Shown here piece after piece: positions 3,919 through 60,121 of a stretch of DNA of 64,000 nt. This DNA is from Ignavibacteriales bacterium (GTDB lineage: Bacteria > Bacteroidota > Ignavibacteria > Ignavibacteriales > Ignavibacteriaceae). Each line of letters begins with the position of its first letter. Position 1 is the first letter of the stretch. The stretch spans positions 10,556 through 74,555 of the forward strand of contig JAAYVN010000041.1 in NCBI GenBank assembly GCA_012517155.1, given 5' to 3'. The position numbers and the translations under genes were made by a program. The notes below the pieces were generated by a model, which searched no databases, was not told the origin of the DNA, and was given only the letters and a program-made list of their open reading frames with translations.

Positions 3919-3935
3919 TTTATAGGAGCAATAAA

Positions 3936-4532
3936 ATGAAATATATAATATTTTTGATCACCGTTTTTTTTCTCTCAAGCGGATTAACGAGTGGTCAGTC
4001 AACTAAAGCCAGATTTGGAATCTTGCTGAAAAATGGCGATCAGCACACTCGCATCAAATCTAATGATCGCGCAAAAGTTAACGACAAATTTAAGATTGTG
4101 ATTCAGGCACTGAACGATTCTTATAATTACGTCCTTTATTCTGACGGTACGGAAACATTACTCCTTAATTCTAAAAAACAGTCAAAGTTGAAAACAAATG
4201 ACAGATTAATACTTCCCGGTAAAAGTGATTACTATGAATTCGATGATCAGAATTCCAAGGCATTTCTGTATGTCATAAATTCAAAAAAACCGGTAAAAGA
4301 AATTGATAATCTTTTTGCTTCAGGTAACTCAGTAAGTAGCACAAAATGGAAAGCCGTTGAAGATAAAATTATTAAATCCATAAAGTCGGATTTAAATGAT
4401 AATTCGGATCAGCCTATTTCAATTGCTGGGAATGTTCGCAGTCTTGAAGATGATAAACTTGATAAACTCCTTCAGACTTTTTCTGATAAAAAAATGATTT
4501 TCAAAAAATATCAAATTGAAATTAAGAAGTAA
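3936..4532 (+). CDS. Exported DUF4384-like protein
   Basis: Signal peptide. KFKIVIQALNDSYNYVLYSDGTETLLLNS...RLILPG resembles DUF4384, a domain usually found with caspase/CHAT proteins. SD aggag lies upstream. Confidence 0.6.
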   Translation: MKYIIFLITVFFLSSGLTSGQSTKARFGILLKNGDQHTRIKSNDRAKVNDKFKIVIQALNDSYNYVLYSDGTETLLLNSKKQSKLKTNDRLILPGKSDYYEFDDQNSKAFLYVINSKKPVKEIDNLFASGNSVSSTKWKAVEDKIIKSIKSDLNDNSDQPISIAGNVRSLEDDKLDKLLQTFSDKKMIFKKYQIEIKK

Positions 4533-6702
4533 AAAACTCCTCTATCCACTTTTATCTATAAATTTGGCGGCAGGCGCAATCCTAGCGCTTGCCTTTTTTA
4601 TTTTCAATATAACCTGGAATACCACAGATTACAAAATCCTTGACTTGTATTACTCACTTGCGCTTGAAAAAGGCTATGGTCCCCAAATCAGTCCTCGCAT
4701 TGTCCACTTGAATATATCCAACAAGACATATGAGTATTTTGGGAAAAACTATCTTGATAGAGGCTTTTTAGCCAATGCTAACAATATTCTGACAGAACTA
4801 TCCCCCCAGGCATGCATGTTTGATCTGATTTTTGTCCATCCAAGTAATCCTCACGACGACAGCCTGTTTCAAAAATCACTTGAAAATGCTCCCCATTTCT
4901 ATCTTCCGGTTGGTATGAAACTTTCTGAAACCACACATTCTTTTAAGTGGGAAGAAGGACCTTATTTTGATAAGCTCAGAGATAACTTCTTGATGAAAAT
5001 CCAGGAAATAGGTGAAGGCAAACCGTATTACTCCCTCTATGGGCAAAGCCAAAATCCAATGTTCGCTGAAGTGATTGAAAACTCAGGCCATATTTCATCG
5101 GTCCCCGACAATGATGGGGTTTACCGGCATTACCCGCTGCTGATAAAAGTTGATTCCTTATTTCTTCCAACTGCCACATTATCAATTTTTCTTAATTATA
5201 ATAATATCCCTGCAGAAAGTCTCCGCATTTTCTGGGGGGATAAAATAATAATTCCTAAAACTGCGGACAGCTATCTGGACAAAGAAGTGATTATACCTAT
5301 TGACTATAAAGGACGCTGCTACATCCCCTATCCCGACAGATGGCAGGATAGTCTGAAACGGATTGAGATGCAGAACTTTGTAGAGCGATACGGAAATGAG
5401 GAAGAATTTGATGAAATGACTGAGATTTTTGAAGGCAATTTTGTTTTTGTCGGTGATATCTCCACGGGTATAGCGGACCTTGGACATACTCCCTTACAGC
5501 ATGATGTTCCCCTGGTTGCCGTTCACTCCGCTTTAATGAATGCTTTTTTAACAAACTCCTTCTATCGTGAAATACACTCTGAGATAATCTTTTACATTAT
5601 TGCAGTATTTTTATTATTGCTCTCGCTGGCTTTACTTCTGAAATCAAATAATTTTATCTATACTTTCGAAGTGGCCGCACTTCTTATACTTGTAATTACC
5701 ACATACTTATTTATTAAAGTTCACTTGCTTATTCCAATATTCTCCATATTCCTGGTAATTTCAATTTTAAGTTTTGTCAGTATTCTTTCCCTTCAGATAA
5801 TTAGTACAAAAGAAGAAAAATTTATTAAAAATGCTTTCTCAAAATACTTGCCGGCAAAAGTGGTGGATAAACTTGTTGATAATCCTCAATTACTCCAGCT
5901 TGGTGGTGAGGAAAGAACACTCTCTTTACTCTTTTCCGATATTGTAGGCTTCACGACTATTTCCGAATCTCTTCAACCAAAAATCCTTGTTCAACTACTA
6001 AACGAGTATCTGACGCGAATGACGGACATCGTTTTTGAAAATTCCGGAATTATTGACAAATATATCGGGGATGCCATACTAGCAGAATTTGGAGCACCTG
6101 TATTTAATGAGAAACATCCGGACCTGGCTGTTTCCACTGCTATATCTATGCAAAAGGAACTTCTAAGATTAAATAATGACTGGAAAAATCTTTATGGAAC
6201 TTCTATAAAAGCAAGAGTTGGGATTAATACGGGTAAGGTAATCATTGGTAATATGGGCAGTCGTCAAATGTTTGATTATACGGTTATAGGTGATTCTGTG
6301 AATCTGGCTGCCCGGCTTGAAAGCGTCAACAAAAAATATTCAACCTCCATTCTGATTTCCGAGTCTACTTATGATGCGCTAAAAATGAACACTTATCTCA
6401 TACGACCCGTGGATGTTATAGTAGTCAAGGGTAAAACAAAACCGGTGAAAATATTTGAAGTTGCAGGATTCTTAACAGATTTTTCGGGCAATTACAAACT
6501 TGAATTGTTTGAAAACTATTCTATAGCCTTTGAGAAATTCCTGAATCGTGATTTTGAGAATGCAACCAGGATACTTAATAACCTGGCATTAGCTCATCCC
6601 GATGATATTCCAACCAGTCTCTTGATTGATCGTATCGCAAAAATAGATACCTCCAAAATTGATGATTCCTGGGATGGTTCCCTCGAACTAACCGAAAAAT
6701 AG
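4516..6702 (+). CDS. CHASE2 sensor domain-containing class III adenylate/guanylate cyclase
   Basis: N-terminal TM, extracytoplasmic CHASE2-like region (...FVFVGDISTGIADLGHTPL...), a TM bundle, then cyclase motifs LFSDIVGFTTISE, GDAILAEFGAP, RVGINTGKVIIGNMGS, YTVIGDSVNLAARLES. Confidence 0.9.
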   Translation: MKLRSKKLLYPLLSINLAAGAILALAFFIFNITWNTTDYKILDLYYSLALEKGYGPQISPRIVHLNISNKTYEYFGKNYLDRGFLANANNILTELSPQACMFDLIFVHPSNPHDDSLFQKSLENAPHFYLPVGMKLSETTHSFKWEEGPYFDKLRDNFLMKIQEIGEGKPYYSLYGQSQNPMFAEVIENSGHISSVPDNDGVYRHYPLLIKVDSLFLPTATLSIFLNYNNIPAESLRIFWGDKIIIPKTADSYLDKEVIIPIDYKGRCYIPYPDRWQDSLKRIEMQNFVERYGNEEEFDEMTEIFEGNFVFVGDISTGIADLGHTPLQHDVPLVAVHSALMNAFLTNSFYREIHSEIIFYIIAVFLLLLSLALLLKSNNFIYTFEVAALLILVITTYLFIKVHLLIPIFSIFLVISILSFVSILSLQIISTKEEKFIKNAFSKYLPAKVVDKLVDNPQLLQLGGEERTLSLLFSDIVGFTTISESLQPKILVQLLNEYLTRMTDIVFENSGIIDKYIGDAILAEFGAPVFNEKHPDLAVSTAISMQKELLRLNNDWKNLYGTSIKARVGINTGKVIIGNMGSRQMFDYTVIGDSVNLAARLESVNKKYSTSILISESTYDALKMNTYLIRPVDVIVVKGKTKPVKIFEVAGFLTDFSGNYKLELFENYSIAFEKFLNRDFENATRILNNLALAHPDDIPTSLLIDRIAKIDTSKIDDSWDGSLELTEK

Positions 6703-6776: not shown

Positions 6777-7145
6777 ATGAAACTCAGATTTTTATTTTTT
6801 GCTTGGATTGCTATAGTTTATATAGGGACATCAACCTCATTTGCCCAGTCAACTATGGAGGTGGGCTATTTTTCATTTAATGAAGGAACTCCGGGTTACA
6901 CGCTTAATAATGGAGAGGGGGATAGATTTGTCCAACTGGAAATAAGGTTTACAAAAACCTTTAACTCAAAACCGGAAATAGTTTTTTCGATAGAGCAACT
7001 CGACTGTTCAATTGACGGCAATGTCAGGTATTCTGTTGAGAGTTCTTTGGTCACCCGGGAAAGTTTCCTGTTAAAGATAAAGACATGGCAGGATACACGA
7101 ATTTTTGCAATCCGTGGTAAATGGATCGCTATCTCTAATGATTAG
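6777..7145 (+). CDS. Small secreted protein, H-type-lectin-like domain
   Basis: Signal peptide. FTKTFNSKPEIVFSIEQLD...VTRESFLLKIKTWQDTRIFAIRGKWIAI resembles the H-type lectin fold signature. Its 3' end overlaps convergent glcF by 11 nt. Confidence 0.5.
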   Translation: MKLRFLFFAWIAIVYIGTSTSFAQSTMEVGYFSFNEGTPGYTLNNGEGDRFVQLEIRFTKTFNSKPEIVFSIEQLDCSIDGNVRYSVESSLVTRESFLLKIKTWQDTRIFAIRGKWIAISND

Positions 7146-8451
7146 ATTGATTTTCTTTCAGAGATTTACGCAATAAACTGACGGGGTGTATCACTTTTAC
7201 GGGGACATTAAATTTTTCAGCTCCATACTGGATTTGTCCCATACATCCCGGATTTCCGGTAACCACAGTATCTGCTCCTGTATTTTTAATATTTTCCATT
7301 TTTCGTTTCAGAAACTTCATCGAGTCTTCATACCTTACTACATTATAGATTCCTGCACTGCCACAGCACCACATTGACTCATCCAGCGGCTTGAGATCCA
7401 AACCCGGGATCTGATTTAACAGAGCCCGTGGCTCCTTTGTTATTTTTTGAGTATGGCACAAATGACATGCGTCATGATATGTAACCGTTTCTTTCACAGA
7501 ATTTAGCGGGGCTGTGATTCCTGCCATGTCAATGAACTCAGTTACTTCCTTAACTCTAGCAGACAGTACTTTCGCTCTTTCAGAGTAGTCAGGATCATCT
7601 TCAAAAATATGGGCATACTCTTTCATGTACGCAGCACAGCCGGCAGAGTTCGATACTATATAGTCAAACTTGTATTTTGAGAATTGGTCAATTGTCTTTT
7701 TCGCAAGATCCTTTGCGAGATCCAACTCACCATAATGTGCCATTAAAGAACCACAACATCCCTGATCAGGCGGACAGATTATTCTGCAGTTATTTCTTTT
7801 CAGCACTTCAACGGTATCCAGATTTATATCCGCGAAAGCCACATTCATTATGCAGCCGGTAGGAACAATAACATTATATCTGGCCTCGCCAACCGGTTCG
7901 GTAATTTCCTTTATCTGCGAGTCACTGAACACCTTTGAAATACGAGGAGTCATCTTATTCATTTCGACCATAATTTTAAGGGATTTGAACAGCCCGAAAA
8001 ACTTATTTGCCAGCCATTCAATACCAAAATTCTGATAGAAATACAAAAGTTTCCCGACTATTTTTATATTCAGCTTTGAACCGACCACATAATGCAGGGC
8101 AAATCTCTTAATATATCTGGCTCCAAAAGAGTCCTTGCCCGATTTAGTGATTATGTCTCTTGCGGCTTCTACCAGGGAACCATACTTAACACCGGCAGGG
8201 CACACGGTTTCACATGCCTGACAGTCAAGACAATAATTCATTTCATCAATGAATGTTTGGGTTATATCGAGTTTACCTTCTGCAAGTGATTTAATCAACC
8301 GGATTCTACCACGTGGTGAAGATCTTTCCAGAAAGTCAACGTTATAAGTTGGACAGGTGGATAAGCACATTCCGCAATGCATGCACTGAACGATTACATC
8401 ATCACCGGGCAATATACTTAAAAGTTTTTTTATGTTTATATCTTGAGACAT
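7135..8451 (-). CDS. glcF: (Fe-S)-binding oxidoreductase subunit, GlcF family (two 4Fe-4S motifs plus CCG domains)
   Basis: CMHCGMCLSTCP and CLDCQACETVCP ferredoxin motifs, followed by cysteine-rich CCG repeats (GCCGS, WCCGSAG). Confidence 0.9.
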   Translation of the reverse strand: MSQDINIKKLLSILPGDDVIVQCMHCGMCLSTCPTYNVDFLERSSPRGRIRLIKSLAEGKLDITQTFIDEMNYCLDCQACETVCPAGVKYGSLVEAARDIITKSGKDSFGARYIKRFALHYVVGSKLNIKIVGKLLYFYQNFGIEWLANKFFGLFKSLKIMVEMNKMTPRISKVFSDSQIKEITEPVGEARYNVIVPTGCIMNVAFADINLDTVEVLKRNNCRIICPPDQGCCGSLMAHYGELDLAKDLAKKTIDQFSKYKFDYIVSNSAGCAAYMKEYAHIFEDDPDYSERAKVLSARVKEVTEFIDMAGITAPLNSVKETVTYHDACHLCHTQKITKEPRALLNQIPGLDLKPLDESMWCCGSAGIYNVVRYEDSMKFLKRKMENIKNTGADTVVTGNPGCMGQIQYGAEKFNVPVKVIHPVSLLRKSLKENQSNH

Positions 8452-9056
8452 TAGAATTCTTTTCGGAATATTGTGGAATTATTATCTGATAAAATAATCA
8501 TTTCTTCTGAGAGCAGAGGCCATCCTTTATATTCGTATTTCCTGAGAAGCAGCTCCCCTTTATGCCTGAAACAATGATTATTAATATATAAAATCAATTT
8601 GCCATCCTTATAATAAGAAGTCGAAACAAGCTCCCCGAAATCCACATTAATATCAATACTTATGTGTTCTATCTTCACTACTTGTTTCACACGATCAGTG
8701 TGAACCCGGTATAACGCTGTAAAAATATCGTGATCAAATAAAAATCCATAGTAATCATCATATGTCTTCTCACTCCGCATCATCATCAGAGTGTATTCAA
8801 TTTCAGGAATCCGACTGAATATGTCGGGTGAAAAAATAAGATAGTCAGAGCATCCGGTTGAGTTCTCGAGAAGCTTGGGCACTTCCCTTCTTTCTTTGAT
8901 ATCCCCGCTCAGATATCTTCCGGTTATTTTACTTGTATCAATTTCGCAGCTCTTTAGAATGGAATCAACCTTTACGGACATATACGGATTCAGCGATTGA
9001 GAAAATAAATGGGCAACAGTCCAGACAAAGTACATAAGTACGAGAAAAGTTCTCAT
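8451..9056 (-). CDS. Hypothetical protein with an N-terminal hydrophobic leader, sitting where glcE normally lies
   Basis: 201-aa ORF, translationally coupled on both sides (4-nt overlap with glcD, 1-nt overlap with glcF). No FAD-binding motif recognised. Confidence 0.6.
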   Translation of the reverse strand: MRTFLVLMYFVWTVAHLFSQSLNPYMSVKVDSILKSCEIDTSKITGRYLSGDIKERREVPKLLENSTGCSDYLIFSPDIFSRIPEIEYTLMMMRSEKTYDDYYGFLFDHDIFTALYRVHTDRVKQVVKIEHISIDINVDFGELVSTSYYKDGKLILYINNHCFRHKGELLLRKYEYKGWPLLSEEMIILSDNNSTIFRKEF

Positions 9057-10492
9057 TTATGAAATTCCGGAATTTCTTCTCTTGAGGATGGTAATTTTCC
9101 CTCGCATTTTGGACCGATTGACAATATTTTAGTCGGGTTTAGAATATTATTCGGGTCCATTACACATTTAATCTTTTTCATGAACTCAATACCGGGACTA
9201 CCCACAAGCTGTTCAAGGAAATGCTTTTTCGCAAGACCTGTTCCATGCTCACCCGTAATTGTTCCACCAAGTTTAATTGCCTCGTTGAAAATATAGTCAA
9301 ACGCTCTGTGAGCATTGAGAATACCCTCCTTATCACGTTCATCGGCTAAACAGGTAGGATGCAGATTACCATCACCAAAGTGCCCGAAATTACCAATTTC
9401 AACGTTAAAATTGCCTGAAGCATACCTCACCTTCTCTATCATCACAGGCAGTTCACTTCTGGGAACTGTGGCATCTTCAAGAATTGTTGTTGGCTTTTTT
9501 CTTGCCAGGGCGCTAAAAGCACTTCTCCGGGCTGTTTTTAATTCCAATGCTTCTGCTTCGAGAGTTGCGGAGCGGACGTAAGTACAATTATTCATTTTAA
9601 GAATATTTGTCACTGTGGCAGCATCAATATCCACCTCATCCCCCCTGCCGTCTAATTCAATCAATAAAACCGCTTCGCTGTTTCTTGGAAGACCGATATG
9701 TGTATAATCCTCCACGCAATTTATTGTGGTATGATCCAGAAACTCCATCATACACGGTGTTAATCGGGCTTCAATAATGTGGGATATTGATTTACCGGCA
9801 TCAAGCATCTTGTCAAAAAAAGCAAGTAAAGTTATTGATTTCTGGGGTTTGGGGAGCAACTTTAAAAGAACCTTAGTGATAATTCCCAGGGTTCCCTCAC
9901 TGCCAACAATTATATCCCTCAGATTATAACCGGCAACATCTTTTACGTTCTTACCCCCGATTTTGAGAAATTCCCCTGTAGGGGTTATCATTTCAAATCC
10001 AAGGACATAATTTTTAGTAACTCCGTATTTCAGCCCCCTCAGACCCCCGGCATTCTCAGCAACATTCCCGCCTATCGTGCAAACATTCAAGCTTCCGGGA
10101 TCAGGCGGATAAAAAAGTCCGAGGGATTCAACATCCTTCTGAAACTTTCCGGTGATTACTCCCGGTTGTACTGTAGCGGTTAAATTTGCCTGGTCTATTT
10201 CCAGGATTTTATTCCATTTGGTTAGCACCATTACAATAGAATTTTCAACCGGAATCGACCCGCCGCTTAAGCCTGTACCCGCTCCCCTTGGTACAACAGC
10301 AAATTTTTCTTCATTGGACAGCTTTATAATTTCTGCAATCTGAGTTTCATTTTCGGGAAAAACAATTGCGTCAGGCTGTTGAGAGATTAATGGGGTACCG
10401 TCATATGAGTAACAAATCTTGTCCTCAATTTTATCGGAATAGTTTTTCTCTCCAACAATATGTTTGACTTTTTCAAGTAATGCGGAATTCAT
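9053..10492 (-). CDS. glcD: FAD-linked oxidase, GlcD / D-lactate dehydrogenase family
   Basis: FAD_binding_4 pattern (VVPRGAGTGLSGGSIP) and the C-terminal FAD-oxidase domain (GTITGEHGTGLAK). Confidence 0.9.
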   Translation of the reverse strand: MNSALLEKVKHIVGEKNYSDKIEDKICYSYDGTPLISQQPDAIVFPENETQIAEIIKLSNEEKFAVVPRGAGTGLSGGSIPVENSIVMVLTKWNKILEIDQANLTATVQPGVITGKFQKDVESLGLFYPPDPGSLNVCTIGGNVAENAGGLRGLKYGVTKNYVLGFEMITPTGEFLKIGGKNVKDVAGYNLRDIIVGSEGTLGIITKVLLKLLPKPQKSITLLAFFDKMLDAGKSISHIIEARLTPCMMEFLDHTTINCVEDYTHIGLPRNSEAVLLIELDGRGDEVDIDAATVTNILKMNNCTYVRSATLEAEALELKTARRSAFSALARKKPTTILEDATVPRSELPVMIEKVRYASGNFNVEIGNFGHFGDGNLHPTCLADERDKEGILNAHRAFDYIFNEAIKLGGTITGEHGTGLAKKHFLEQLVGSPGIEFMKKIKCVMDPNNILNPTKILSIGPKCEGKLPSSREEIPEFHK

Positions 10493-10496
10493 ATGA

Positions 10497-10778
10497 TTAA
10501 TTAAAATATCTTGATAAAAAATAACTGACTATATATGCCGTCACCACGACACCTAATGCCAAATAAAGTAGTTTCTTCAAAAAATTCTTTGTCGTACCGA
10601 ATGAAAACTTCACACCCCTCCAGCCGCATTCGCTGCATCTGTATATTCTGAAAATCCTTAAACTTTTAAGAATTTTTTCCCAGATTGTGCGTGCTCTTGA
10701 TCTGTTCAGTGCACCAATGCTTTTACAAGATGGACATCGTGCGAAGGCAGGATCAACTTTATGAAGCAGTTTACTCAT
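10497..10778 (-). CDS. Small zinc-ribbon protein with a C-terminal TM helix
   Basis: Two CxxC pairs (CPSCKS, CSECGW) plus the hydrophobic tail LLYLALGVVVTAYIVSYFL. Confidence 0.55.
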   Translation of the reverse strand: MSKLLHKVDPAFARCPSCKSIGALNRSRARTIWEKILKSLRIFRIYRCSECGWRGVKFSFGTTKNFLKKLLYLALGVVVTAYIVSYFLSRYFN

Positions 10779-10782: not shown

Positions 10783-12444
10783 CTAATTTGACTTTAGTAA
10801 TTTGTTGTAAGTCTCGGAATTTCTTAAAAATTCCAAAGCTTTGTTAATTAAAATATCATTTCCCAGTGCCATTTCGAAGGACTTATCCGGAGAAAAGTAT
10901 CTTTTTGCAAGTTCATTTTTAATTTCCCGCAGTAATCCGGATTTCTGTTTGCCAAGTTCCTCTGAATAGAGGCGAGTCAGCTCATCTCTGATAACAGAAA
11001 TTTCTTTTTTCAAGGCGTTTTTTCCATTCAGAGTAGCTATCTCGTCCTCAAGATTGCTTATGATCCTAAAGGCTTCTCCCTTCAACTCGAAATTTTGCTT
11101 GTGAAGGAATGCGGAGAACTCGTTATAAAGCACCTCATCAGTAATTTTTGAAAAGTCGGTTTTGTTATTTTTTTCGTAGAACTCATTCGCAAACTGAAAT
11201 ATAAGTCCCTTTGCATAAAGTTCAAGAAGGATCTCTGACTTTTCAGTAAAGTCCATTATCGAGTCGGGAGTTATTCCGCCGGAACTAAACACTATTCGCT
11301 TGTTGTCGGTCAGAAACTCTGCTTTCTTGTTTTCCTCGACTGATTTAAAAACCGGATTCTTTCCGGAGTAATCAATTTTCTGAATACATCTACCGCTCGG
11401 GGTATAGTACTTTGAAGTGGTTATTTTCAGGGATGTGTTATAAGAAAGGGGAGTAATAGTCTGGACAAGTCCTTTTCCAAAAGTTGCCGTGCCCAGAATA
11501 ATTCCCCGGTCATGATCTTGTACTGCACCGGCAACTATCTCAGATGCAGAGGCAGAACTCCCATCAACCAGCAGTGCAATTTTTATATCTTTAAGCAGGG
11601 GTTCCTGAGTATTGAAATATTGTTTTACGTTGGTCGTGTCCCTGCCTTTTGTGGATACAACCAGCAGATTCTTATCAAGGAATTTGCCTGCAATATCAAC
11701 GGCTGCATCGAGCAATCCCCCGGGATTTCCCCTAAGGTCAAGCACAAGTGTTTCGATTTCACTTTTTTTTCTAAGTTCTGTTATTGCCTTTTTTAATTCT
11801 TCCCCGCTGGTTCTGCCGAAACCCGAAAGACGGACGTATGCATTTTTACTTGATTCCGGATAAAACCCTGCATACTCAACATTTTTAACAATTATCTCTT
11901 CCCTCAGCAGATTGAAAATCAAAGTATCTCTGGAATTCCGGAGTATAGTGATGGAAACAAAAGTCCCGGGTTTGCCCTTGACGTGTGATGAGATTTCCTC
12001 AAACACCGCTTGGGAAATCAGAACCGAATCAACTTTGAGAATAACATCCCCGATAATTATCCCCTGCTTCTGAGCGGCATACCCGCTAAGCAATTCCACA
12101 ATAGTAACATGCTCATCCCGTATGCCAATACTTATCCCCACCCCCCCGTATTTGCCGGTAGTAAGCAGGTCGACATCATCCTTTCTTTTTTCGTCCACAA
12201 ACACAGTATAAGGGTCAAGTGTACTCAGCATTCCCCTGATCCCTGCCCTGAGAAATTCTTCAGGACTGATGTCATCCACATAATTAAAAGCAATTTCCTT
12301 AAAGACCCGTGTGAATATATCTATATTCTTTGCGACATCAAAATATATATCTTTCCTTACTAAATTAAATGCCAAAATCCCCATAAGCGCAGGGACTAAA
12401 ACAAATACCCAGATTAACCTCGTTTTATTGTTGCCTGTTTTCAA
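10783..12444 (-). CDS. S41 family C-terminal processing peptidase with a PDZ domain
   Basis: GGVGISIG (PDZ), LVLDLRGNPGGLL, LVDGSSASASEIVAGAVQD (S41 Ser/Lys core). Confidence 0.9.
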   Translation of the reverse strand: MKTGNNKTRLIWVFVLVPALMGILAFNLVRKDIYFDVAKNIDIFTRVFKEIAFNYVDDISPEEFLRAGIRGMLSTLDPYTVFVDEKRKDDVDLLTTGKYGGVGISIGIRDEHVTIVELLSGYAAQKQGIIIGDVILKVDSVLISQAVFEEISSHVKGKPGTFVSITILRNSRDTLIFNLLREEIIVKNVEYAGFYPESSKNAYVRLSGFGRTSGEELKKAITELRKKSEIETLVLDLRGNPGGLLDAAVDIAGKFLDKNLLVVSTKGRDTTNVKQYFNTQEPLLKDIKIALLVDGSSASASEIVAGAVQDHDRGIILGTATFGKGLVQTITPLSYNTSLKITTSKYYTPSGRCIQKIDYSGKNPVFKSVEENKKAEFLTDNKRIVFSSGGITPDSIMDFTEKSEILLELYAKGLIFQFANEFYEKNNKTDFSKITDEVLYNEFSAFLHKQNFELKGEAFRIISNLEDEIATLNGKNALKKEISVIRDELTRLYSEELGKQKSGLLREIKNELAKRYFSPDKSFEMALGNDILINKALEFLRNSETYNKLLKSN

Positions 12445-13048
12445 TCTTTTTTATTTCCTCAATAATAATTTCGTGAATTTCCTCAACCGGAAGAATGCCA
12501 TTTATTAATTTAATCCTGTTTTCTGTTTTGGAAAGTGATAAAAAGCCTTCCCTGACTTTATGAAAGAAATCTAAGGATGCCAGTTCCATTCGATCCAGCG
12601 CACGGGAATTTTTCCCGTATTTTCTTTTTTCCATTTCTTCAATCGGGATATCTATAAAGACGGTAATATCAGGAATGCACTCACCGACAGCAAATTTATT
12701 TATTTGCTGAACGGCATCCAAAGAGACTCCCCTTCCATATCCCTGATACGCAGTGGTCGAATCAAAAAAACGATCAGTTATTACCACAGTTCCATCCTGA
12801 ATGTAGGGGAGGATAACTTCACGAACAAGCTGAGACCTGGCAGCCGAGAAGAGAAGTATCTCGGTCTCGATGGACATTTGATGGTTCTCCTTATCAAGAA
12901 GAATTGATCTTACTTTTTCTGATATCAGAGTACCCCCCGGTTCTCTTATTAACTTTACTTTTTTACCCTTACCAATAAAGTAGTGTTCAAGTAATTTAAC
13001 CTGAGTCGTTTTGCCGCTAAAATCAATACCCTCAAAAGAAATGAACAT
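12425..13048 (-). CDS. tmk: dTMP (thymidylate) kinase
   Basis: P-loop FISFEGIDFSGKTTQ, REPGGT, DRFFDSTTAYQGYGRG. Confidence 0.92.
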   Translation of the reverse strand: MFISFEGIDFSGKTTQVKLLEHYFIGKGKKVKLIREPGGTLISEKVRSILLDKENHQMSIETEILLFSAARSQLVREVILPYIQDGTVVITDRFFDSTTAYQGYGRGVSLDAVQQINKFAVGECIPDITVFIDIPIEEMEKRKYGKNSRALDRMELASLDFFHKVREGFLSLSKTENRIKLINGILPVEEIHEIIIEEIKKIENRQQ

Positions 13049-13050
13049 AA

Positions 13051-13962
13051 TCAGAATTCTTTAATTATATATTTAACCCTGTCCGGTTCTTTATAAACCA
13101 GTTTGATGTTTGGTGGTGTTTTGACATACGTCCTGATGCTGCCCACCGTATCCGCAACAATATCGTGATAGTTAACCTCTGCGTAAATCTCCTGGGTATT
13201 TAATTTCCCCAGAATATTAATTCCGCCTCTCAGGAGAATGGAAATCCTGTCAGGCAAAATAACAATATTTCTTCCCGGCGGAAGATTCACAATTCTGATT
13301 GGAACTTCCCCCACTTCCCGCTCGACGATTTTCTGAACATCAAAATGCAAATTAACCTTACCTGGCTTAATGTTAAGCAGCGGGCTTTTTACAAGTTCAA
13401 CCTCAGTGGAGAAGGACTGATCCAGTTTCGAGTAATATAACAGTGCGGTTTTAACGTTTTTCATTGTATCCAGGAAACGATGAGTTCCGGAGACCATCAC
13501 ACTATCAGGAATACTTGATACAGGGACCGCCAAACCAAATTCCTCCTTAAAATCAATGGTTACATCAGGCGATACAGGAAGCATACGGGTTTCGAGCTTA
13601 TCAATCTTCATGTTAATAGCTGAAGGCCAGACATCAAGTACCTGAACATCTGAAGTTACCCAGTCATTATCAGTCAGCGAGTTCATCAGTTTAATATGAA
13701 TATTTCCGACCTCAAGACCTGCTGAAGCAACATACTCGATATTCCGGCCAAGATGCAATCCAAGGATTTTCCATCCCACCGCTTTGAGTTTCACAGTTAG
13801 TGTTTCGGGGTAAGTGGATGCCAGTCCATAACCATCGCGTACATTCGAAATTTTCAGAGGTAAACGAAGAGTAGTATAAAAACTACCCGAAATGTTCACA
13901 GAACTCCAGATAATTATCGCAAAAACAAATGAAAGAATGACTATGGGAATTTTCTTTTTCAT
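13051..13962 (-). CDS. YbbR-like domain-containing protein
   Basis: N-terminal TM, then repeated beta-rich YbbR-type modules (LPLKISN...GYGL, VPIRIVNLPPG). Confidence 0.6.
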   Translation of the reverse strand: MKKKIPIVILSFVFAIIIWSSVNISGSFYTTLRLPLKISNVRDGYGLASTYPETLTVKLKAVGWKILGLHLGRNIEYVASAGLEVGNIHIKLMNSLTDNDWVTSDVQVLDVWPSAINMKIDKLETRMLPVSPDVTIDFKEEFGLAVPVSSIPDSVMVSGTHRFLDTMKNVKTALLYYSKLDQSFSTEVELVKSPLLNIKPGKVNLHFDVQKIVEREVGEVPIRIVNLPPGRNIVILPDRISILLRGGINILGKLNTQEIYAEVNYHDIVADTVGSIRTYVKTPPNIKLVYKEPDRVKYIIKEF

Positions 13963-14019
13963 ATTTCAAATATATGAATAATGAAAGGAAAATCAAAGAG
14001 ATGGAAGGGGTTTGAATTT

Positions 14020-14895
14020 TTACTTAATTCCCTTAAGGAAGTCAAGTAAAACTGTCCTGTTGGCTTTTGAAATTTCCCTGCCTTTAATTGGGAAATCGGG
14101 AATGGAGCGTGCCAGTCTTCGCAACTGGTGCACGTTCATGGAAAGAATATCCTGGGTGAGGTCAGTCTCCGAAACGTCTTCTTCAAGATAATGGACTTCG
14201 GGCATAACAGTCTCTTCAATACCTTCGGAAGAATCAATCACCAGCGGTTCTTCGTAATAAACAATATCCTGTTCCTCTTCTTTCTGAGGAGCAGGTTCAG
14301 GGAATTTTCCCTCCGGTAGTTCTATCTTCTCAGGAACTTCCTCAATCTGCTCGAACAGGGTGTTATAAGTTTCGGTTTTGGGAATCTCCTTAACAACCTT
14401 TCGCTTTTTAGGTTTTTCAGGTATGGGCTTAGCAGGAACATCGGGAACATCAGGCTGAGTCACCTGATTTTCTTCCACAACACTTAAAACCGCAGAGGGA
14501 GGACCACTGTCTGCAAGCGGAGTAACTTTTTCAGCCTCATCAACTGATTTTACTGATTCAGGTTTTTTCTTTCGGGGAGATTTAGTTACCGGATCAGCAG
14601 GAGGAGGAGTTTCTTCGGGTTCAGATATTTCAGGTATTATGGAAGAAAGCTGGTCATCGGGCTGAGGGATCACGTGTAAAGCTACTAACTGACCGACAGC
14701 CTGAGCAGCATATGCTCCGGCTTCCACAGCGTGTTTAACTGCAGCGGTTTCACCCACTACTTTAATAGTCACCATTGCAGGTTTGGTAATTTCCTTACCC
14801 ACAATGGTTACATTGGCAGCCTTTGCCATAGCATCGGCTGCCTCAATAGCACCTATTAATCCTTTTGTCTCGACAAGACCAAGCGCTTTAGACAT
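14020..14895 (-). CDS. BMC-H (PF00936-type) shell protein with a long disordered C-terminal extension and a terminal Rho_N/HeH-like motif
   Basis: N-terminus [32 protein letters not shown]...VHVIPQP is a canonical BMC domain. About 160 aa of P/E/K-rich sequence follow, then MNVHQLRRLARSIPDFPIKGREISKANRTVLLDFLKGIK. Confidence 0.85.
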   Translation of the reverse strand: MSKALGLVETKGLIGAIEAADAMAKAANVTIVGKEITKPAMVTIKVVGETAAVKHAVEAGAYAAQAVGQLVALHVIPQPDDQLSSIIPEISEPEETPPPADPVTKSPRKKKPESVKSVDEAEKVTPLADSGPPSAVLSVVEENQVTQPDVPDVPAKPIPEKPKKRKVVKEIPKTETYNTLFEQIEEVPEKIELPEGKFPEPAPQKEEEQDIVYYEEPLVIDSSEGIEETVMPEVHYLEEDVSETDLTQDILSMNVHQLRRLARSIPDFPIKGREISKANRTVLLDFLKGIK

Positions 14896-14900
14896 TTGAA

Positions 14901-15194
14901 TTATTTTGCCCTTTTAGGGAGTATTAATTCCACTTCCGAATGTGGTCTTGGAATGACGTGAACGGAAACCAGTTCACCAACCCTCTGAGCTGCGGCTGCT
15001 CCGGCATCAGTAGCTGCCTTCACTGCTCCGACATCTCCACGGACAAGCACAGTAACATAACCACCGCCAATAGTTTCCTTGCCAATCAATTCAACCTTAG
15101 CTGCTTTAACCATTGCATCAGCGGCTTCAATAGCACCGACCAGCCCTTTAGTTTCAATCATTCCCAATGCGTCAAGTGTCATACCATTCTCCAT
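14901..15194 (-). CDS. BMC-H shell protein (PduA/EutM/CcmK-like)
   Basis: [32 protein letters not shown]...[13 protein letters not shown]...VHVIPRPH. Confidence 0.92.
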
Positions 15195-15302
15195 TATAAT
15201 GTTGTTTATTTTTAAAACTCTTAATTATATGCCAATTTGAAATTTTTACTTTGAAAATATAGCTATTATATTTGATTTATGAAACAATTTCGGACAAAAT
15301 TT

Positions 15303-15734
15303 TCATTTTTTTTGTGAGTCGAGAAATTCCTGGAGGATAACGGCAGCGGCATTCTTATCAATCAGTGCCTTGTTCTGCCTTGCTTTTTTCTTAATGCCCG
15401 AAGCCAGAATGCGCTGCGACGCAATTGAGGAGGAGTATCTTTCATCCCAGAAAAGAATCTCGGCACCGGTAATTTTTTTTAACGAGTCCGCGAAAGCCCT
15501 GATAGTTTTATCCAGTTCGCCGGTGCTCCCGTCTTCTTTATAAGGCAAACCGATAATAATTTTCACAATCCCCTTTTCCCGGATCAGGCGGGACAAATCA
15601 TCAAGGGTTTTATTATTGTTCAGGATTGTATCGTGCGGATAGGCGAAAATCTTAAAGGGGTCAGTCAATGCCAGCCCAATGCGCTTGCTCCCATAGTCAA
15701 TACCAAGGTACCGAGTTTCAGAATCCGTGCCCAA
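15303..15734 (-). CDS. ruvX: Holliday junction resolvase-like protein RuvX (YqgF)
   Basis: LGIDYGSKRIGLALTD ... IIIGLP ... DERYSS motifs. Confidence 0.9.
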   Translation of the reverse strand: MGTDSETRYLGIDYGSKRIGLALTDPFKIFAYPHDTILNNNKTLDDLSRLIREKGIVKIIIGLPYKEDGSTGELDKTIRAFADSLKKITGAEILFWDERYSSSIASQRILASGIKKKARQNKALIDKNAAAVILQEFLDSQKK

Positions 15735-15735
15735 T

Positions 15736-17916
15736 CTATTCTTCCATCCTAGCCACTGAATAGACGCCCTTTATTTTCTTCAACTTTTCAATAATGCCGG
15801 AGAGATGCTGAAGATTGTTGACATATAAAGTAACCGTACCTTCGAACATGTTGTCATGCGTATCAATATTAATCGATTTAATATTGGTATTTTTATAAGA
15901 AACCACAGAATGCGAAATGGTATTAAGAATACCGGGGGAATCCTCACCGCGAAGCACCAGACCAACGATAAACGAATTATTCTCAATTTCAGGCCACTGA
16001 ATGTCAACCACTTTTTCAGGATCACGTGTGATAGCCTGAAGGAGGTTTTTACAGTTTCGCCGGTGAATTTTAATCCCCTCCCCAACAGTAACGAAACCGA
16101 CCACGGGGTCTCCTGGGATAGGATTACAGCATTTAGAATAAGAGATCAGCATTTTTGTAGTCTCGCCGTCCACCACAATATGACCGCCGGTGGCGCGGGC
16201 GTAAGAAGTAAATTTATCAACCTCGGTCAGATAGGAGGTTTCCTTTTTTTCCTTTTCCTCCTCCATTGCGGAATGTGTAATCACCTCGTCAAGATTCACT
16301 TTACCCGAGGCGATAGTTAGATAAAACTGCCGTAGGTTCTCGAATTTGTTTGCGGTTATAATCTTCTTAATTTCCTGGGGGGTAAAGGTGAGTTTCATTT
16401 TCTTAAGTTTCTTATCCCAGATCTCTTTACCCGTATCAACAATTTTATCCTCTTCCTTATTCAGCCAGCGTCTTATTTCATTCTTTGCCTTGTGTGTAAC
16501 AACGAACTTGAGCCAGTTTTTATTGGGGTGCTGGTTTTTGGAAGTAATAATATCCACCTGGTCCCCGCTTTGCAGTATTGTATCGAGAGAAACAATTCGC
16601 TGATTTACTTTTGCACCAATGCAGTGATGCCCGACCTTCGAGTGAATATCGAAGGCAAAATCAACCGGAGTGGAATTCAGGGGGAGTCTGCGTAAATCGC
16701 CCTTGGGAGTAAAGACATAAATCTCATCGGCGAAGAGATTCATCTTGAAATTTTCGATGATGTTCTTTTTCTGATCATCGGGGGAAGGATTCTCAATAAT
16801 CTCGCGGATCCAGTTTACATAGTTATCAATTGTTTTATCGTTAAGGTTCCCCCCCTCCTTGTATTTCCAGTGTGCTGCAACGCCTTGCTCGGCAATATTG
16901 TGCATTTTCCTTGTCCGGATTTGCACCTCAACCAGCATACCGTTAGGACCAACGACGGTGGTATGGATGGACTGGTAATTGTTGTTTTTCGGAATTGCTA
17001 TGTAATCTTTGAACCGGTCGGGAACAGGAATATAAACCTCGTTGACCATTCCGAAAGTAGTATAGCAATCGTGAATCTTGTCGCTCTCCAGAATAATCCT
17101 GACCGCAAAGAGGTCATAAATTTCCTCAAAGGGTTTATTGCGCTTAATCATCTTTCCGTAAATACTATATAGGTGTTTTGGACGACCGTTAATTTCAAAC
17201 TTGAACCCATATTCATTAAGCCGCTCGATAATAGGGGCGCTGAATTTCTCAATATATTTTTCGCGCTCTCCCCTTTTACTGCTTATCTTCTTTTTAATAT
17301 CCTCGTAAGCCTGCTTGTTCAATTCCTTAAAAGCGAGGTCTTCAAGTTCCCATTTCAATTGTCCAAGACCGAAGCGGTGAGCAAGTGGGGCATAAATTTC
17401 GAGGGTTTCCTTAGCGATTCGTTTTTTCTTATCCGGATTGAGGAACTCAATAGTCCGCATATTGTGAAGTCGGTCGGCAAACTTAACTATAATTACCCTG
17501 ATATCACGGGAGATTGACATAAGGAGCTTACGGTAGTTTTCCGCCTGTGAAATATCGGATCCTTTAAAGATATACTTTATTTTTGTAAGTCCATCAATAA
17601 TTACGGCAATTTCATCACCGAAATTCTTTTTGATCACCTCGATAGAATAATCCTCATGATCCTCAACGATATCGTGCATAAGCCCGCAGGCAACGGAAAC
17701 GTCGTCGAAAGGAATCTCTTCGCAGAGAATTCTGGAAACAGCATAGGGATGAGAAAAATAGGGTTCATCCGAGGCACGGATATCATTTTCGTGAGCCATG
17801 GATGCGAACTCAAAGGCTTTGGTTATCAAATTAGCATCTGATCTTACCAGATATTTATTTGACAGTGCCAGAAGGTCTTCAAGCATTTTTTTATTTTGCT
17901 GTGGTGAAAGGCTCAT
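15736..17916 (-). CDS. relA: Bifunctional (p)ppGpp synthetase/hydrolase (RelA/SpoT family)
   Basis: HD domain (HDIVED), RelA_SpoT synthetase region (YQSIHTTV), TGS and ACT-like C-terminus. Confidence 0.93.
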   Translation of the reverse strand: MSLSPQQNKKMLEDLLALSNKYLVRSDANLITKAFEFASMAHENDIRASDEPYFSHPYAVSRILCEEIPFDDVSVACGLMHDIVEDHEDYSIEVIKKNFGDEIAVIIDGLTKIKYIFKGSDISQAENYRKLLMSISRDIRVIIVKFADRLHNMRTIEFLNPDKKKRIAKETLEIYAPLAHRFGLGQLKWELEDLAFKELNKQAYEDIKKKISSKRGEREKYIEKFSAPIIERLNEYGFKFEINGRPKHLYSIYGKMIKRNKPFEEIYDLFAVRIILESDKIHDCYTTFGMVNEVYIPVPDRFKDYIAIPKNNNYQSIHTTVVGPNGMLVEVQIRTRKMHNIAEQGVAAHWKYKEGGNLNDKTIDNYVNWIREIIENPSPDDQKKNIIENFKMNLFADEIYVFTPKGDLRRLPLNSTPVDFAFDIHSKVGHHCIGAKVNQRIVSLDTILQSGDQVDIITSKNQHPNKNWLKFVVTHKAKNEIRRWLNKEEDKIVDTGKEIWDKKLKKMKLTFTPQEIKKIITANKFENLRQFYLTIASGKVNLDEVITHSAMEEEKEKKETSYLTEVDKFTSYARATGGHIVVDGETTKMLISYSKCCNPIPGDPVVGFVTVGEGIKIHRRNCKNLLQAITRDPEKVVDIQWPEIENNSFIVGLVLRGEDSPGILNTISHSVVSYKNTNIKSINIDTHDNMFEGTVTLYVNNLQHLSGIIEKLKKIKGVYSVARMEE

Positions 17917-18917
17917 TTTAATTCATCTCTTAATTCGTTTACTCTCTTTAGACGACCCTGAAGCTTTTGCGATTCATAGGCGGAAAAATTTTTTATCGCC
18001 AGAATTTCATTACACAAAGCAAGTGCTTTTTTATTATCACCAAGCCGCTGATAGTTCTGGGCAATTTTATGCAGAAGGATAACACGCCTGTAATTAGTCA
18101 GTTTGTTTTCCTTCTCAAAAGATGCAAGGACTTCCCGGTACAACGAAATTGCTTTTGCGAAGTCCGAATTCTCGTGCACCCGCGCAAGACTCATCTTAAT
18201 CATTCTTGACGATGGGAAACGAATAATTGCATCGTTGGCAATTTTCAATGCCTCCCGGAAATTCTTCTGTCTTATATATATCCAGACCAGGGAATTAAAA
18301 CCGAGCAGAGCGTTTTTAGAATTACCATAAATCCCTTTTCTGAGATAGTCAATTCCTGTCTGCCGTTCGTCAGTAACAAACGGAAGCCAGTTCAGGAAAT
18401 CGGTTTTATCGCTTTTCCAATATTTATAAGTTCCCAGAGCAATATAAGCATCGGAGAAGTCAGGATCAATTGCAATACATTTCTCGAAGTAACTAACGGC
18501 TTTCAATCCCGAAGAAAGAGCAGAGAGCATACTACCGTTCAGTCCGTTATAGTAAGCCTCAAAACCTTTTACCAGAGCAACGTAGTAGTTGTTCCAGAGG
18601 CTCTCGCTGTCAGTGGATAAAAGCGCATTGGCTTTTTTCATGGCGGCATCGAGGAGGTCTTCAATTTTCTTTTCCTCCAGGGGAAGCCCGTAATCCGAGC
18701 TTTCCAGAATAGTTCCGGCAGCAAGATAAAGATTGCCAAGCGGATTATCCGGATAAGTGCTGCGTATTTTTTCAAAAACCAGTTCTGCCCTGAAATAGTC
18801 CTGGTTAGTCAGATGAACAATACCTGCTTTAACCAGAGAGTCGAGATATTTATCCGGCAGAGACTGAGAGAACAAAGCCGGAGCGAGAAGAAGACATACG
18901 AGGATGAAGAGTTTCAT
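17913..18917 (-). CDS. Exported TPR-repeat protein
   Basis: Signal peptide MKLFILVCLLLAPALFSQ. Multiple TPR-like helical repeats. Confidence 0.7.
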   Translation of the reverse strand: MKLFILVCLLLAPALFSQSLPDKYLDSLVKAGIVHLTNQDYFRAELVFEKIRSTYPDNPLGNLYLAAGTILESSDYGLPLEEKKIEDLLDAAMKKANALLSTDSESLWNNYYVALVKGFEAYYNGLNGSMLSALSSGLKAVSYFEKCIAIDPDFSDAYIALGTYKYWKSDKTDFLNWLPFVTDERQTGIDYLRKGIYGNSKNALLGFNSLVWIYIRQKNFREALKIANDAIIRFPSSRMIKMSLARVHENSDFAKAISLYREVLASFEKENKLTNYRRVILLHKIAQNYQRLGDNKKALALCNEILAIKNFSAYESQKLQGRLKRVNELRDELK

Positions 18918-19556
18918 TTACAGCGTCCCGAAAGTCCTGTCCCCAGCATCCCCAAGCCCCGGAAGAATATAACCTTTGTTATTCAACTGTCTGTCAAATG
19001 CAGCGCAAAAAATCTTCAGGTCAGGATGATTCGAGGTGAGGTTAGTAACCCCTTCCGGACAAGCGACAATACAGGCGAAAATAATTTTCTTTGCTCCCCG
19101 TTCCTTAAGGAACTTCACAGCCTCTGAAGCAGAGCCTCCGGTTGCAAGCATGGGATCAAGAATAATCACCACCGAGTCAATAATCTCCTTTGGGGTTTTG
19201 AAATAGTATTCCACCGGTTTAAGCGTAACCTCGTCGCGCTGAAGACCAATGTGCCCCACTTTGGATTCTGGAATGATTTCGAGAAAACCTGCAACCATTC
19301 CCAAACCCGCACGCAGTACAGGGACGAGAACAACCGACTGGCTTAAAACGTGCCCCACCGTCAGTTCAAGCGGAGTGCGGACATCAATTCGGGTAACCTG
19401 AAACTCCCTGGAGATTTCGTTGGCAAGAATGATAGATATTCTTTTAACCACCGCCCTGAATAACTCCTGAGGAGTATTTTCATCCCTGAGTATCGAGATA
19501 TCCCGCTTAATAAGGGGATGATCAATCAAAAAGAAATTATCCGTATTATTGGACAT
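18918..19556 (-). CDS. upp: Uracil phosphoribosyltransferase
   Basis: VPVLRAGLGM, PRPP loop VIILDPMLATGGS, and the C-terminal YILPGLGDAGDR. Confidence 0.93.
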   Translation of the reverse strand: MSNNTDNFFLIDHPLIKRDISILRDENTPQELFRAVVKRISIILANEISREFQVTRIDVRTPLELTVGHVLSQSVVLVPVLRAGLGMVAGFLEIIPESKVGHIGLQRDEVTLKPVEYYFKTPKEIIDSVVIILDPMLATGGSASEAVKFLKERGAKKIIFACIVACPEGVTNLTSNHPDLKIFCAAFDRQLNNKGYILPGLGDAGDRTFGTL

Positions 19557-26177: not shown

Positions 26178-26684
26178 ATGAAAATAGCAACTTATCCGGG
26201 AACATTTGATCCCGTAACAAACGGACATATAGACATCATTCGCCGGGGGATGGAGATATTCGACAGGATAATCGTAACCGTAGCCAGGAACACAACCAAA
26301 ACCACTCTTTTTTCACCCGCTGAACGGCTTGATCTGCTGAGGAAAAGTCTTTCGGGAATGACCAACGTTGAGGTGGTTTCTTTTGCAGGGCTGGTTGTGG
26401 AGCATGCGAAATCGGTAGGTGCGGTGGCTGTTTTAAGGGGGCTTAGAGCGGTGAGTGATTTTGAATACGAGTTTCAGATGGCTTTGATGAACCGCAAACT
26501 TGCACCCGAAATCAATACCGTTTTCCTTATGCCCAACGAGAAATATACTTACCTGAATTCTTCCATTATCAGAAGTCTTAGTGAGTTTGATGCCGATATA
26601 AATGACTTTGTACCAAAGGTGGTTGCTGATGCACTCAAGAAAAAAATAATGAAAAAACAAGCTACAATGAAAGGGAAGAAATGA
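26178..26684 (+). CDS. coaD: Phosphopantetheine adenylyltransferase
   Basis: YPGTFDPVTNGHIDII, RGLRAVSDFEYE. Confidence 0.93.
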   Translation: MKIATYPGTFDPVTNGHIDIIRRGMEIFDRIIVTVARNTTKTTLFSPAERLDLLRKSLSGMTNVEVVSFAGLVVEHAKSVGAVAVLRGLRAVSDFEYEFQMALMNRKLAPEINTVFLMPNEKYTYLNSSIIRSLSEFDADINDFVPKVVADALKKKIMKKQATMKGKK

Positions 26685-30203: not shown

Positions 30204-30261
30204 AATTTATCTAAAAAAGGTAACAAAATCAAGATAATAAATACTCCGGATGGAACTGGAC

Positions 30262-30720
30262 AAAAGGTTAAAAGATAAAGAGATAAAGAGATAAAAAGGT
30301 AAAAAGATTTAAAGTTAAATGGGGATTTTTGTTGATTTGTTGATATGTTGAGGTAGCTGCGCTGTCAGTAATGGTCATTAGGTGGTCATTTGGCTTCGCC
30401 GTCATTAGGTTGTAAGAGGAATAGAACTCGGATGAAGCGGATTATCCGGCTCCGCAGGGTGTTGCACAGAAAAATATCACTAAAAACAATTGTTCTTCTA
30501 TGCGTGATATTGCGGAAAACTTTACGTTACTTTGCGTTTAAGGGATATCAATCGCCGAAGAGTTAAAGTTTAGGGGTAAGAGGGAAAGAGGGATTTTTGT
30601 TCCCGCAGGCGGGACAGGTGATGTGTCGATATGTTAAGGTGATTAACCCCCCTTCAGTTAATCCGCAGCAGCGGAGGGGAATATATATCCCCCTCCGTTG
30701 GCTAACGGCTTACGCTAACA
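30262..30720. repeat. Mosaic of short repeats and GC-rich hairpins in a 523-nt non-coding gap
   Basis: A/G-rich (a)aagataaagag iterations at 30262-30319. ggggatttttgttgatttgttgatatgtt at 30321-30350. Three copies of gtcatt(a/t)gg at 30373-30409. gggatttttgttcccgcaggcgggaca at 30589-30616. Hairpins at 30662-30675 and 30673-30696. Palindrome ccgttggctaacgg at 30695-30708. Confidence 0.75.
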
Positions 30721-30726
30721 CTAAAA

Positions 30727-60014: not shown

Positions 60015-60044
60015 AAAAAACCCTGCCATATTGACAGGGTTTTG
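60015..60044 (-). terminator. Terminator downstream of tRNA-Arg
   Basis: Minus strand: CCCTG-(9 nt)-CAGGG followed by T6. Confidence 0.55.
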
Positions 60045-60047
60045 TAG

Positions 60048-60121
60048 TACACCCGTAGGGATTCGAACCCCAAACCTTCTGATCCGTAGTCAGATGCTCT
60101 ATCCAATTGAGCTACGGGTGC
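60048..60121 (-). tRNA. tRNA-Arg (anticodon ACG)
   Basis: The reverse complement folds as a 74-nt cloverleaf: GCACCCG TA GCTC AATTGGATA GAGC A TCTGA CTACGGA TCAGA AGGTT TGGGG TTCGAAT CCCTA CGGGTGT A. Confidence 0.95.

Follow-up and report, generated by a model that had tools for sequence, protein, structure and literature searches.

In a stretch of 64,000 nucleotides (nt) from the genome of an Ignavibacteriales bacterium (contig JAAYVN010000041.1; hereafter the window), two adjacent genes encode shell proteins of the bacterial microcompartment (BMC) family BMC-H: a short protein of 97 amino acids (aa) and a 291-aa paralogue with a long C-terminal tail. We are highly confident that this pair belongs to a FRAG1-type BMC as its BMC-H satellite locus, FRAG1 being a shell-protein-only type catalogued by Sutter et al. 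(2021; PMC8217296, Nat Commun 12:3809). The tail of the longer protein ends in a small basic domain, and the best explanation that we can offer for it, which we hold to be reasonably probable, is that the tailed paralogue docks the compartment to a polyanion. Both the pair and its tailed copy have been catalogued since 2021, and what we describe is a known kind of system found again.

Identity and position of the shell-gene pair

Both open reading frames (ORFs) score above the gathering threshold of the Pfam BMC family PF00936 (79.1 and 104.6 bits against 24.5) with a single domain each, and their coordinates (Table 1) agree with what a preliminary description of this DNA had reported, namely two neighbouring BMC-domain genes 5 nt apart between ruvX/relA and ybbR/tmk. 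The 97-aa protein reaches 134.4 bits against the NCBIfam EutM model, whose cut-off is 133, and it passes the test for canonical tiling motifs in full, with KAAK and PRPH at the edge and GGG in the pore loop. The tailed protein passes it in part: KAAN is kept, the edge has PQPD in place of PRPH, and the pore loop reads TKPA instead of the G-G-G or G-S-G type. Its BMC domain, which had been called canonical and normal, is indeed normal in fold, but its edge and pore are non-canonical.

The pair stands alone in the window. A tblastn search with both BMC-H proteins found no BMC domain beyond these two, and the vertex protein BMC-P was found neither in the window nor within 10 kb of the pair in any of 82 related loci, whether by tblastn or by seed hidden Markov models (HMMs). 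Taken from the window and the 82 loci, 5,848 stop-to-stop ORFs went into the HMM search, whose best match had E 0.15. EutN, CcmL and PduN served as seeds. The EutN and CcmL seeds score about 205-210 bits against the PDB entries 2HD3 and 4JVZ, and they also detect the distant BMC-P proteins 5V74 and 5L37. Of the 55 large non-overlapping ORFs, 54 were scanned against the Pfam or NCBIfam families, RelA/SpoT by NCBIfam only and a 168-aa ORF by Pfam. Among the 54 scanned ORFs there was no acylating aldehyde dehydrogenase, PduL, class II aldolase, PduS or PduV/EutP; apart from the BMC-H pair they are housekeeping and unrelated genes. The sole PF00171 protein of the window was considered as a BMC aldehyde dehydrogenase and rejected, as it is an L-glutamate gamma-semialdehyde (P5C) dehydrogenase above the NCBIfam curated cut-offs, encoded 17 kb off beside the beta subunit of succinyl-CoA ligase. 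The three approaches together bear out the earlier statement that no BMC-P, other shell gene or signature enzyme lies near the pair.

For this isolation the pair had been called an orphan. No BMC gene is indeed nearby, but the isolation is explained, since scattered shell genes define FRAG1 (Sutter 2021). In that work, the FRAG BMCs are the types without locus organisation, with shell genes spread over as many as six places; they carry a BMC-P triplet and their hosts include Ignavibacteriae (PMC8217296). FRAG1 itself comprises 57 loci, is a shell-protein-only type and is most prominent in Ignavibacteria (Sutter 2021, Supplementary Data 2). According to the same Supplementary Data 2, its BMC-H set consists of one standard protein and one with a long C-terminal extension and an ordered end domain, its BMC-P triplet (green, grey and orange clades) is encoded apart from the BMC-H pair, a PduS/PduT pair accompanies 24 of the 57 loci (about 40%), and no enzyme or encapsulation peptide was identified. 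The trees of Sutter 2021 include a 229-aa BMC-H and a 98-aa BMC-P of Ignavibacteria FRAG1. Moreover, Melioribacter roseus has seven BMC-P genes across five loci (Axen 2014), and two Melioribacter genomes among our loci (L012 and L033) have the same BMC-H pair as the window. The window pair agrees with FRAG1 in the description of its BMC-H proteins, in being a shell-only locus and in its Ignavibacteria-centred range, and with two contiguous PF00936 genes and zero PF03319 genes in the window it has the gene content of a satellite BMC locus in the sense of Axen 2014. Among the papers searched, we found FRAG1 mentioned by none besides the Sutter 2021 catalogue and its preprint. In the naming of that catalogue, HO denotes Haliangium ochraceum and not 'hexamer only'. 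Because the catalogue already describes the tailed shell protein, the feature that had been seen as unusual is a catalogued one and not novel (Sutter 2021, Supplementary Data 2). The preliminary description had itself named, as an observation that would overturn its interpretation, a shell set that routinely includes the tailed paralogue in a known role; the first half of this, the routine inclusion, is what FRAG1 presents.

To place the pair on the chromosome, we compared 82 loci, consisting of the best 80 from a scan of one genome per species, in which 344 species genomes encode the end domain, and two others. By taxonomy, the best 80 mostly carry Ignavibacteria-type labels, the others having broader ones such as Bacteroidetes, Bacteroidales or Chlorobiota. 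The order upp-TPR-relA-ruvX-[BMC-H]-[tailed BMC-H]-ybbR-tmk-ctp, which spans 10783-19556 in the window, is essentially invariant across these loci: YbbR was recognised in 79, RuvX and Tmk in 75 each, Ctp in 74 and RelA in 72, with contig ends explaining most gaps. Both BMC-H genes are present in 72 of the 82 loci, the short ortholog lying immediately upstream of the tailed gene, and a single BMC region was seen in 8. The ORF that carries the end domain starts with a BMC domain in 74 of the 82; in the remaining 8 it is cut off by a contig end or does not fit the start pattern used. The pair is thus vertically conserved at one chromosomal position across Ignavibacteria and behaves as a syntenic core gene pair; this fixed place among core genes differs from that of most BMC loci, which are accessory. 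In five of the loci with a single BMC region (L004, L030, L072, L077 and L080) the tailed BMC-H gene directly follows ruvX and the short basal BMC-H gene is absent.

The end domain of the tailed protein

The tailed protein has three parts: the BMC domain, a linker and a C-terminal mini-domain. The preliminary description had noted about 160 residues of low-complexity sequence, rich in P, E and K, after the BMC domain, and both composition and structure prediction agree with it. The linker (residues ~89-252) contains 18.9% E, 14.6% P and 9.8% K, has a net charge of -23 and shows no repeats; in the full-length AlphaFold2 model its predicted local distance difference test (pLDDT) score is 43-60, with no secondary structure. 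Among relatives, linkers range in length from 37 to about 370 aa, are unconserved in sequence and are mostly acidic (median charge -6, down to -76). The last 39 residues, MNVHQLRRLARSIPDFPIKGREISKANRTVLLDFLKGIK, carry a net charge of +6 and are modelled in the full-length protein with a pLDDT of 92-96. When the last 52 residues were modelled alone with 22 relatives, AlphaFold2 gave a mean pLDDT of 87 and placed helices at positions 16-25, 34-38 and 41-51 of this segment, with an extended loop that contains the invariant FPIxG between the first two.

The 291-aa protein, used as the query of a family search, had 1376 homologs. Close homologs measure 164-467 aa, come from Ignavibacteriaceae and Melioribacteraceae where the source names an organism, and have in common the BMC domain and the C-terminal block xLNVHQLRxLARxxxxFPIxGREISKANRxxLLxYF, with a variable middle. 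Twelve positions in the 39 residues are invariant (V255, H256, L258, R259, A262, R263, F268, P269, G272, R273, S276 and A278), and the net charge of the end domain across the family has a median of +5 (range +2 to +9). Besides the 344 species genomes, a profile of the end domain recognised 631 of 1.84 billion protein cluster representatives at E<=1e-3; at E<=1e-10 the number is 291. Among the 150 matches listed, all but one end no more than about 8 residues from the C-terminus, the exception (P0136) being a partial gene. All ten of the full-length end-domain proteins inspected (279-467 aa) start with a BMC domain, and the short ones are gene fragments. On these sequence matches, the end domain appears to be restricted to the C-terminal tails of BMC-H proteins.

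The tails of many relatives contain a second motif. The stretch (D/S)TIxRL(R/K)xEALG occurs in 56 of the 82 relatives, typically about 25-45 residues before the end domain; examples among L004-L082 are L026, L061 and L075. It is a short amphipathic segment amid disorder, reminiscent of an encapsulation-peptide-like element. The clade of the window protein (with P0002, P0004, P0006 and P0007) does not have it, and DIVYYEE stands in its place.

The end of the tail had been likened to the helix-extended loop-helix (HeH) fold of the Rho_N class, and here the evidence is divided. The predicted topology of helix, extended loop and helix fits HeH. Among predicted viral structures (BFVD), the top match of the end-domain model is a phage protein annotated as 'Rho termination factor N-terminal domain-containing protein', with a template-modelling (TM) score of 0.69, a root-mean-square deviation of 2.3 A over 49 columns, a probability of 0.80 and a non-significant E of 0.95; the 49 BFVD matches listed include five to Rho_N, counting the top one, and one to SAP, all below significance. 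In Pfam, the tail of the window protein matched zero families at E<=1 and at E<=10, and one of 22 relatives gave a sub-threshold Rho_N match (E 0.051); by sequence, the end domain stays below the threshold for PF07498, PF02037 or related families. Foldseek against the PDB returned six irrelevant matches and no Rho, SAP, LEM or EutK chain. The family profile likewise found no Rho, SAP, LEM or EutK among PDB sequences, its chance matches being a fumarase and a dehalogenase at E ~0.5, and hhalign of the family against residues 1-51 of E. coli Rho (sequence checked against PDB 1A62) gave an empty alignment. A tblastn search of the end domain against 50,697 phage genomes had no match, and no rho gene was found in the window or the related loci. 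The claimed resemblance holds up weakly, with topology and the BFVD matches in its favour and Pfam, PDB Foldseek, the PDB profile search, hhalign and the phage-genome search against it. As far as the models can tell, the fold resemblance to Rho_N/HeH is probably real; membership of the HeH clan is not established.

Possible roles of the tailed hexamer

The geometry of BMC-H proteins offers a guide to what such a tail could do. In non-permuted BMC-H proteins both termini lie on the concave face (PMC5534457), and in solved shells the concave face is turned outward (PMC6787980). Because the C-termini sit on this outward side, the leash of a tailed subunit would reach the cytosol. We propose that the 97-aa protein would tile the shell facets and that the 291-aa protein would be incorporated as a less abundant or specialised tile. 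It may enter the shell in mixed hexamers with the neighbouring protein, in the manner of CcmK3 and CcmK4. A tailed hexamer would then project up to six flexible, acidic leashes of roughly 160 residues each, and each leash would end in an HeH/Rho_N-like helical module of charge +6. This basic module could dock on a polyanion, most likely nucleoid DNA or RNA, or on a dedicated protein partner, and the docking would serve the positioning, the partition or inheritance, or the substrate capture of the compartment. A cytosol-facing nucleic-acid tether is plausible in that it fits both the outward geometry and the charge of the module; as a specific claim, we put nucleic-acid tethering forward only tentatively and would not call it probable.

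Several points weigh against this proposal. The edge of the tailed protein is missing the PRPH arginine of canonical tiling (it has PQPD, and many relatives have PRPD), and because of this its incorporation into facets is not assured. Neither by structure nor by sequence does the end domain have a match that reaches significance, and the argument for nucleic-acid binding consists of charge, a weak fold resemblance and the analogy with EutK. The BMC-P triplet is assigned to this organism from the FRAG1 literature, our own reading having covered the 64-kb window, and the FRAG1 'compartment' is itself deduced from shell genes, with its cargo and enzyme unnamed.

The strongest competing explanation is that the end domain is a protein-protein docking module, which would bring a specific partner to the outside of the shell; this could be an enzyme, a membrane or cytoskeletal protein, or a factor that positions the compartment. 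A domain seen only on BMC-H tails, with 12 of 39 positions invariant and the hydrophobic F268-P269-I270 among the conserved residues, fits a dedicated partner interface; Pfam, the PDB profile search and PDB Foldseek gave no significant match to a nucleic-acid-binding family, and the TIxRLRxEALG stretch of many relatives looks like a peptide-type interaction element. However, the conserved neighbours of the pair are housekeeping genes only, with no candidate partner among them, the median charge of +5 and the invariant arginines suit a polyanion, and the best fold matches are to modules of Rho_N/SAP type. On balance, we regard a protein-docking role as rather unlikely. We give still less credence to the idea that the pair is a core, vertically inherited cell-structure module of Ignavibacteria and not an accessory metabolic organelle, and that its HeH-like basic domain, on the long acidic leash, would couple a shell or an open lattice directly to the nucleoid or RNA.

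Instead of a closed metabolosome, the hexamers could also build sheets, tubes or a scaffold, an open assembly that would have a constitutive role in the cell biology of Ignavibacteria. Such a role would suit the fixed housekeeping position in nearly all 82 loci, unlike that of accessory, horizontally transferred BMC loci, and it would suit the lack of BMC-P in the window and within 10 kb on either side of the pair in any locus. We know of no role for vertex proteins outside shells. The FRAG1 genomes do carry the BMC-P triplet, which implies closed polyhedra (Sutter 2021), and although Sutter 2021 (Supplementary Data 2) identified neither an enzyme nor an encapsulation peptide for FRAG1, which speaks for it, we judge an open assembly to be improbable.

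It is very improbable that the tail faces the lumen and acts as an internal, cargo-condensing scaffold in the manner of CsoS2 or CcmM. Its linker is long, disordered, highly charged and variable in length, as in scaffold proteins, and Sutter 2021 (Supplementary Data 2) recognised no encapsulation peptides on FRAG1 cargo, but the linker has no repeats and the C-termini of non-permuted BMC-H proteins are on the outward concave face (PMC5534457, PMC6787980). Finally, the pair could be taken, in the absence of other BMC genes from the 64 kb, for a functionless and decaying remnant of a lost BMC locus; this is effectively refuted by the conservation of the family, which is kept in 344 species genomes and whose two domains each contain invariant residues, and both ORFs are intact with high-confidence domain models.

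If docking by the tailed paralogue to a nucleic acid were true, the link between shell and nucleic acid would lie inside a shell protein itself, something not known to have been shown for any microcompartment. The FRAG-type BMCs are among the largest BMC groups of unassigned function, cargo and substrate, and the tailed hexamer would be the only FRAG1 component with a feature directed outside the shell.

Other genes in the window and comparison with known systems

The 108-nt region between ruvX and the pair (Table 1) held 11 promoter-like hexamers, not in excess of the 7.8 +/- 2.7 found in shuffled sequence, and a promoter and terminator scan around the BMC-H pair gave no signal beyond the shuffled expectation.

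Table 1. Positions of the features discussed, numbered within the window
Feature	Position	Strand	Remarks
Tailed BMC-H, 291 aa	14020..14895	-	PF00936 E 2.3e-22, over aa 4-79
BMC domain of tailed BMC-H, aa 1-88	14632..14895	-	PF00936; AlphaFold2 pLDDT 85-96
Disordered acidic, proline-rich linker, aa 89-252, 164 aa	14140..14631	-	Composition, AlphaFold2
C-terminal mini-domain, aa 253-291, 39 aa	14023..14139	-	Conservation, AlphaFold2
Stop codon of tailed BMC-H	14020..14022	-
Gap between the two BMC-H ORFs	14896-14900		5 nt
Basal BMC-H, 97 aa	14901..15194	-	PF00936 E 2.6e-30
AT-rich intergenic region between ruvX and pair, 108 nt	15195..15302	-	Candidate site of the pair's own promoter
RuvX	15303-15734		Upstream of pair
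RelA/SpoT	15736-17916		Upstream of pair
YbbR-like protein	13051-13962		Downstream of pair
Thymidylate kinase (tmk)	12425-13048		Downstream of pair
S41 C-terminal processing peptidase (ctp)	10783-12444		Downstream of pair
Open frame, about 115 aa	563-907	-	Adjoins tRNA-Asp
tRNA-Asp	975-1050
WD40, 198-aa and CHASE2 cyclase genes	2293-6702	+
H-type lectin gene	6777-7145
Oxidase block	7135-10778	-
Fe-S/CCG subunit	7135-8451	-	Oxidase block
201-aa protein	8451-9056	-	Oxidase block
Glycolate-oxidase-like FAD-linked oxidase	9053-10492	-	Oxidase block
Zinc-ribbon protein, 93 aa	10497-10778	-	Oxidase block
168-aa ORF	26178-26684		Scanned by Pfam
Intergenic gap	30204-30726
Succinyl-CoA ligase beta	30727-31890
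PF00171 protein (P5C dehydrogenase)	31924-33477	-
Receiver-PglZ protein, 557 aa	37322-38995	+	Directly upstream of tsaE
tsaE	38992-39426
tsaB-like gene	39419-40066
Multihaem cytochrome, 680 aa	49598-51640	-
Intergenic gap	51641-52211
M20 peptidase	55345-56814	-
PqqD-like protein, 129 aa	56825-57214	-
OPT oligopeptide transporter	57254-59299	-
Intergenic gap	59300-60046
tRNA-Arg	60047-60121		Abuts the preceding gap

Elsewhere in the window, the multihaem cytochrome combines MtrC/MtrF-like, c7, c554 and c3 domains with a C-terminal Por_Secre_tail for type IX secretion and is a candidate secreted or outer-surface electron-transfer protein. The PqqD-like protein is encoded between an OPT oligopeptide transporter and an M20 peptidase; PqqD folds often act as peptide-recognition elements. 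A receiver domain is fused to a PglZ domain in the protein encoded directly upstream of tsaE and a tsaB-like gene. Near the start of the window, genes for a WD40 beta-propeller (541 aa), a 198-aa protein without a Pfam match and a CHASE2 adenylate/guanylate cyclase (728 aa) stand in a row, and the cyclase and the H-type lectin gene are also found near the pair in the relative L002. In the same relative, the oxidase block likewise follows ctp. In the window this block contains a glycolate-oxidase-like FAD-linked oxidase, an Fe-S/CCG subunit, a 201-aa protein of no assigned function and a 93-aa zinc-ribbon protein with a hydrophobic C-terminus. The open frame beside tRNA-Asp contains a YYVGHTENLxxRxxxHN-type stretch that may be GIY-YIG-like. 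Three gaps of 520-750 nt, the last of them abutted by tRNA-Arg, hold no convincing ORF and no Rfam match at the gathering threshold.

Among known systems, an analogy in proposed function is that of the carboxysome, which is positioned by McdB and the ParA-type McdA, a separate adaptor and an ATPase that link shell and nucleoid. The analogy is functional only: in the tailed BMC-H the putative tether is part of the shell protein, and none of the genes next to the pair is ParA-like. At the level of the fold, the HeH modules of Rho_N, SAP and LEM (PF07498, PF02037) are likewise basic, of ~40 residues and built of helix, extended loop and helix; they differ from the end domain in that its loop is about 4 residues longer and contains the invariant FPIxGR.

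In overall design, the tailed protein recalls EutK, which Tanaka et al. in 2010 reportedly described as a BMC-H protein of the eut operon with a C-terminal domain of helix-turn-helix type. Both have a BMC-H domain, a linker and a small, basic, helical domain, which in EutK is thought to bind nucleic acid; the linker of the tailed protein is far longer and acidic, and its gene has housekeeping neighbours rather than a place in an operon of enzymes. Of the 166 positions in the NCBIfam EutK model, only 1-94, which are the BMC domain, align with the tailed protein. Homology between the two tails was considered and is excluded at the level tested, as the NCBIfam model matches in its BMC half only and EutK did not appear in the PDB searches. 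The same EutK analogy was drawn for FRAG1 by Sutter et al. 2021.

The arrangement of the two genes resembles the CcmK3/CcmK4 satellite of beta-carboxysomes, in which neighbouring BMC-H paralogues lie away from the main shell genes and are proposed to tune the shell (Sutter 2021). There, too, one paralogue has non-canonical edge residues; CcmK3 and CcmK4 differ in having no long tail or terminal domain and in belonging to a compartment whose cargo is known.

The nearest relative of all is FRAG1 itself, which shares with the window pair the taxon (Ignavibacteria), an enzyme-free, shell-only locus and BMC-P genes that are not adjacent, and from which the pair shows no testable difference. The FRAG1 paper (Sutter 2021) does not state the ruvX/ybbR synteny or the restriction of the end domain to BMC-H proteins. 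Beyond the catalogue, our analysis adds these two features, the synteny being class-wide, together with the lack of homology to EutK and a weak Rho_N-like fold signal. With a folded, basic end domain found only in BMC-H proteins, a syntenic core pair and a tail that is not that of EutK, the observation is now more testable.

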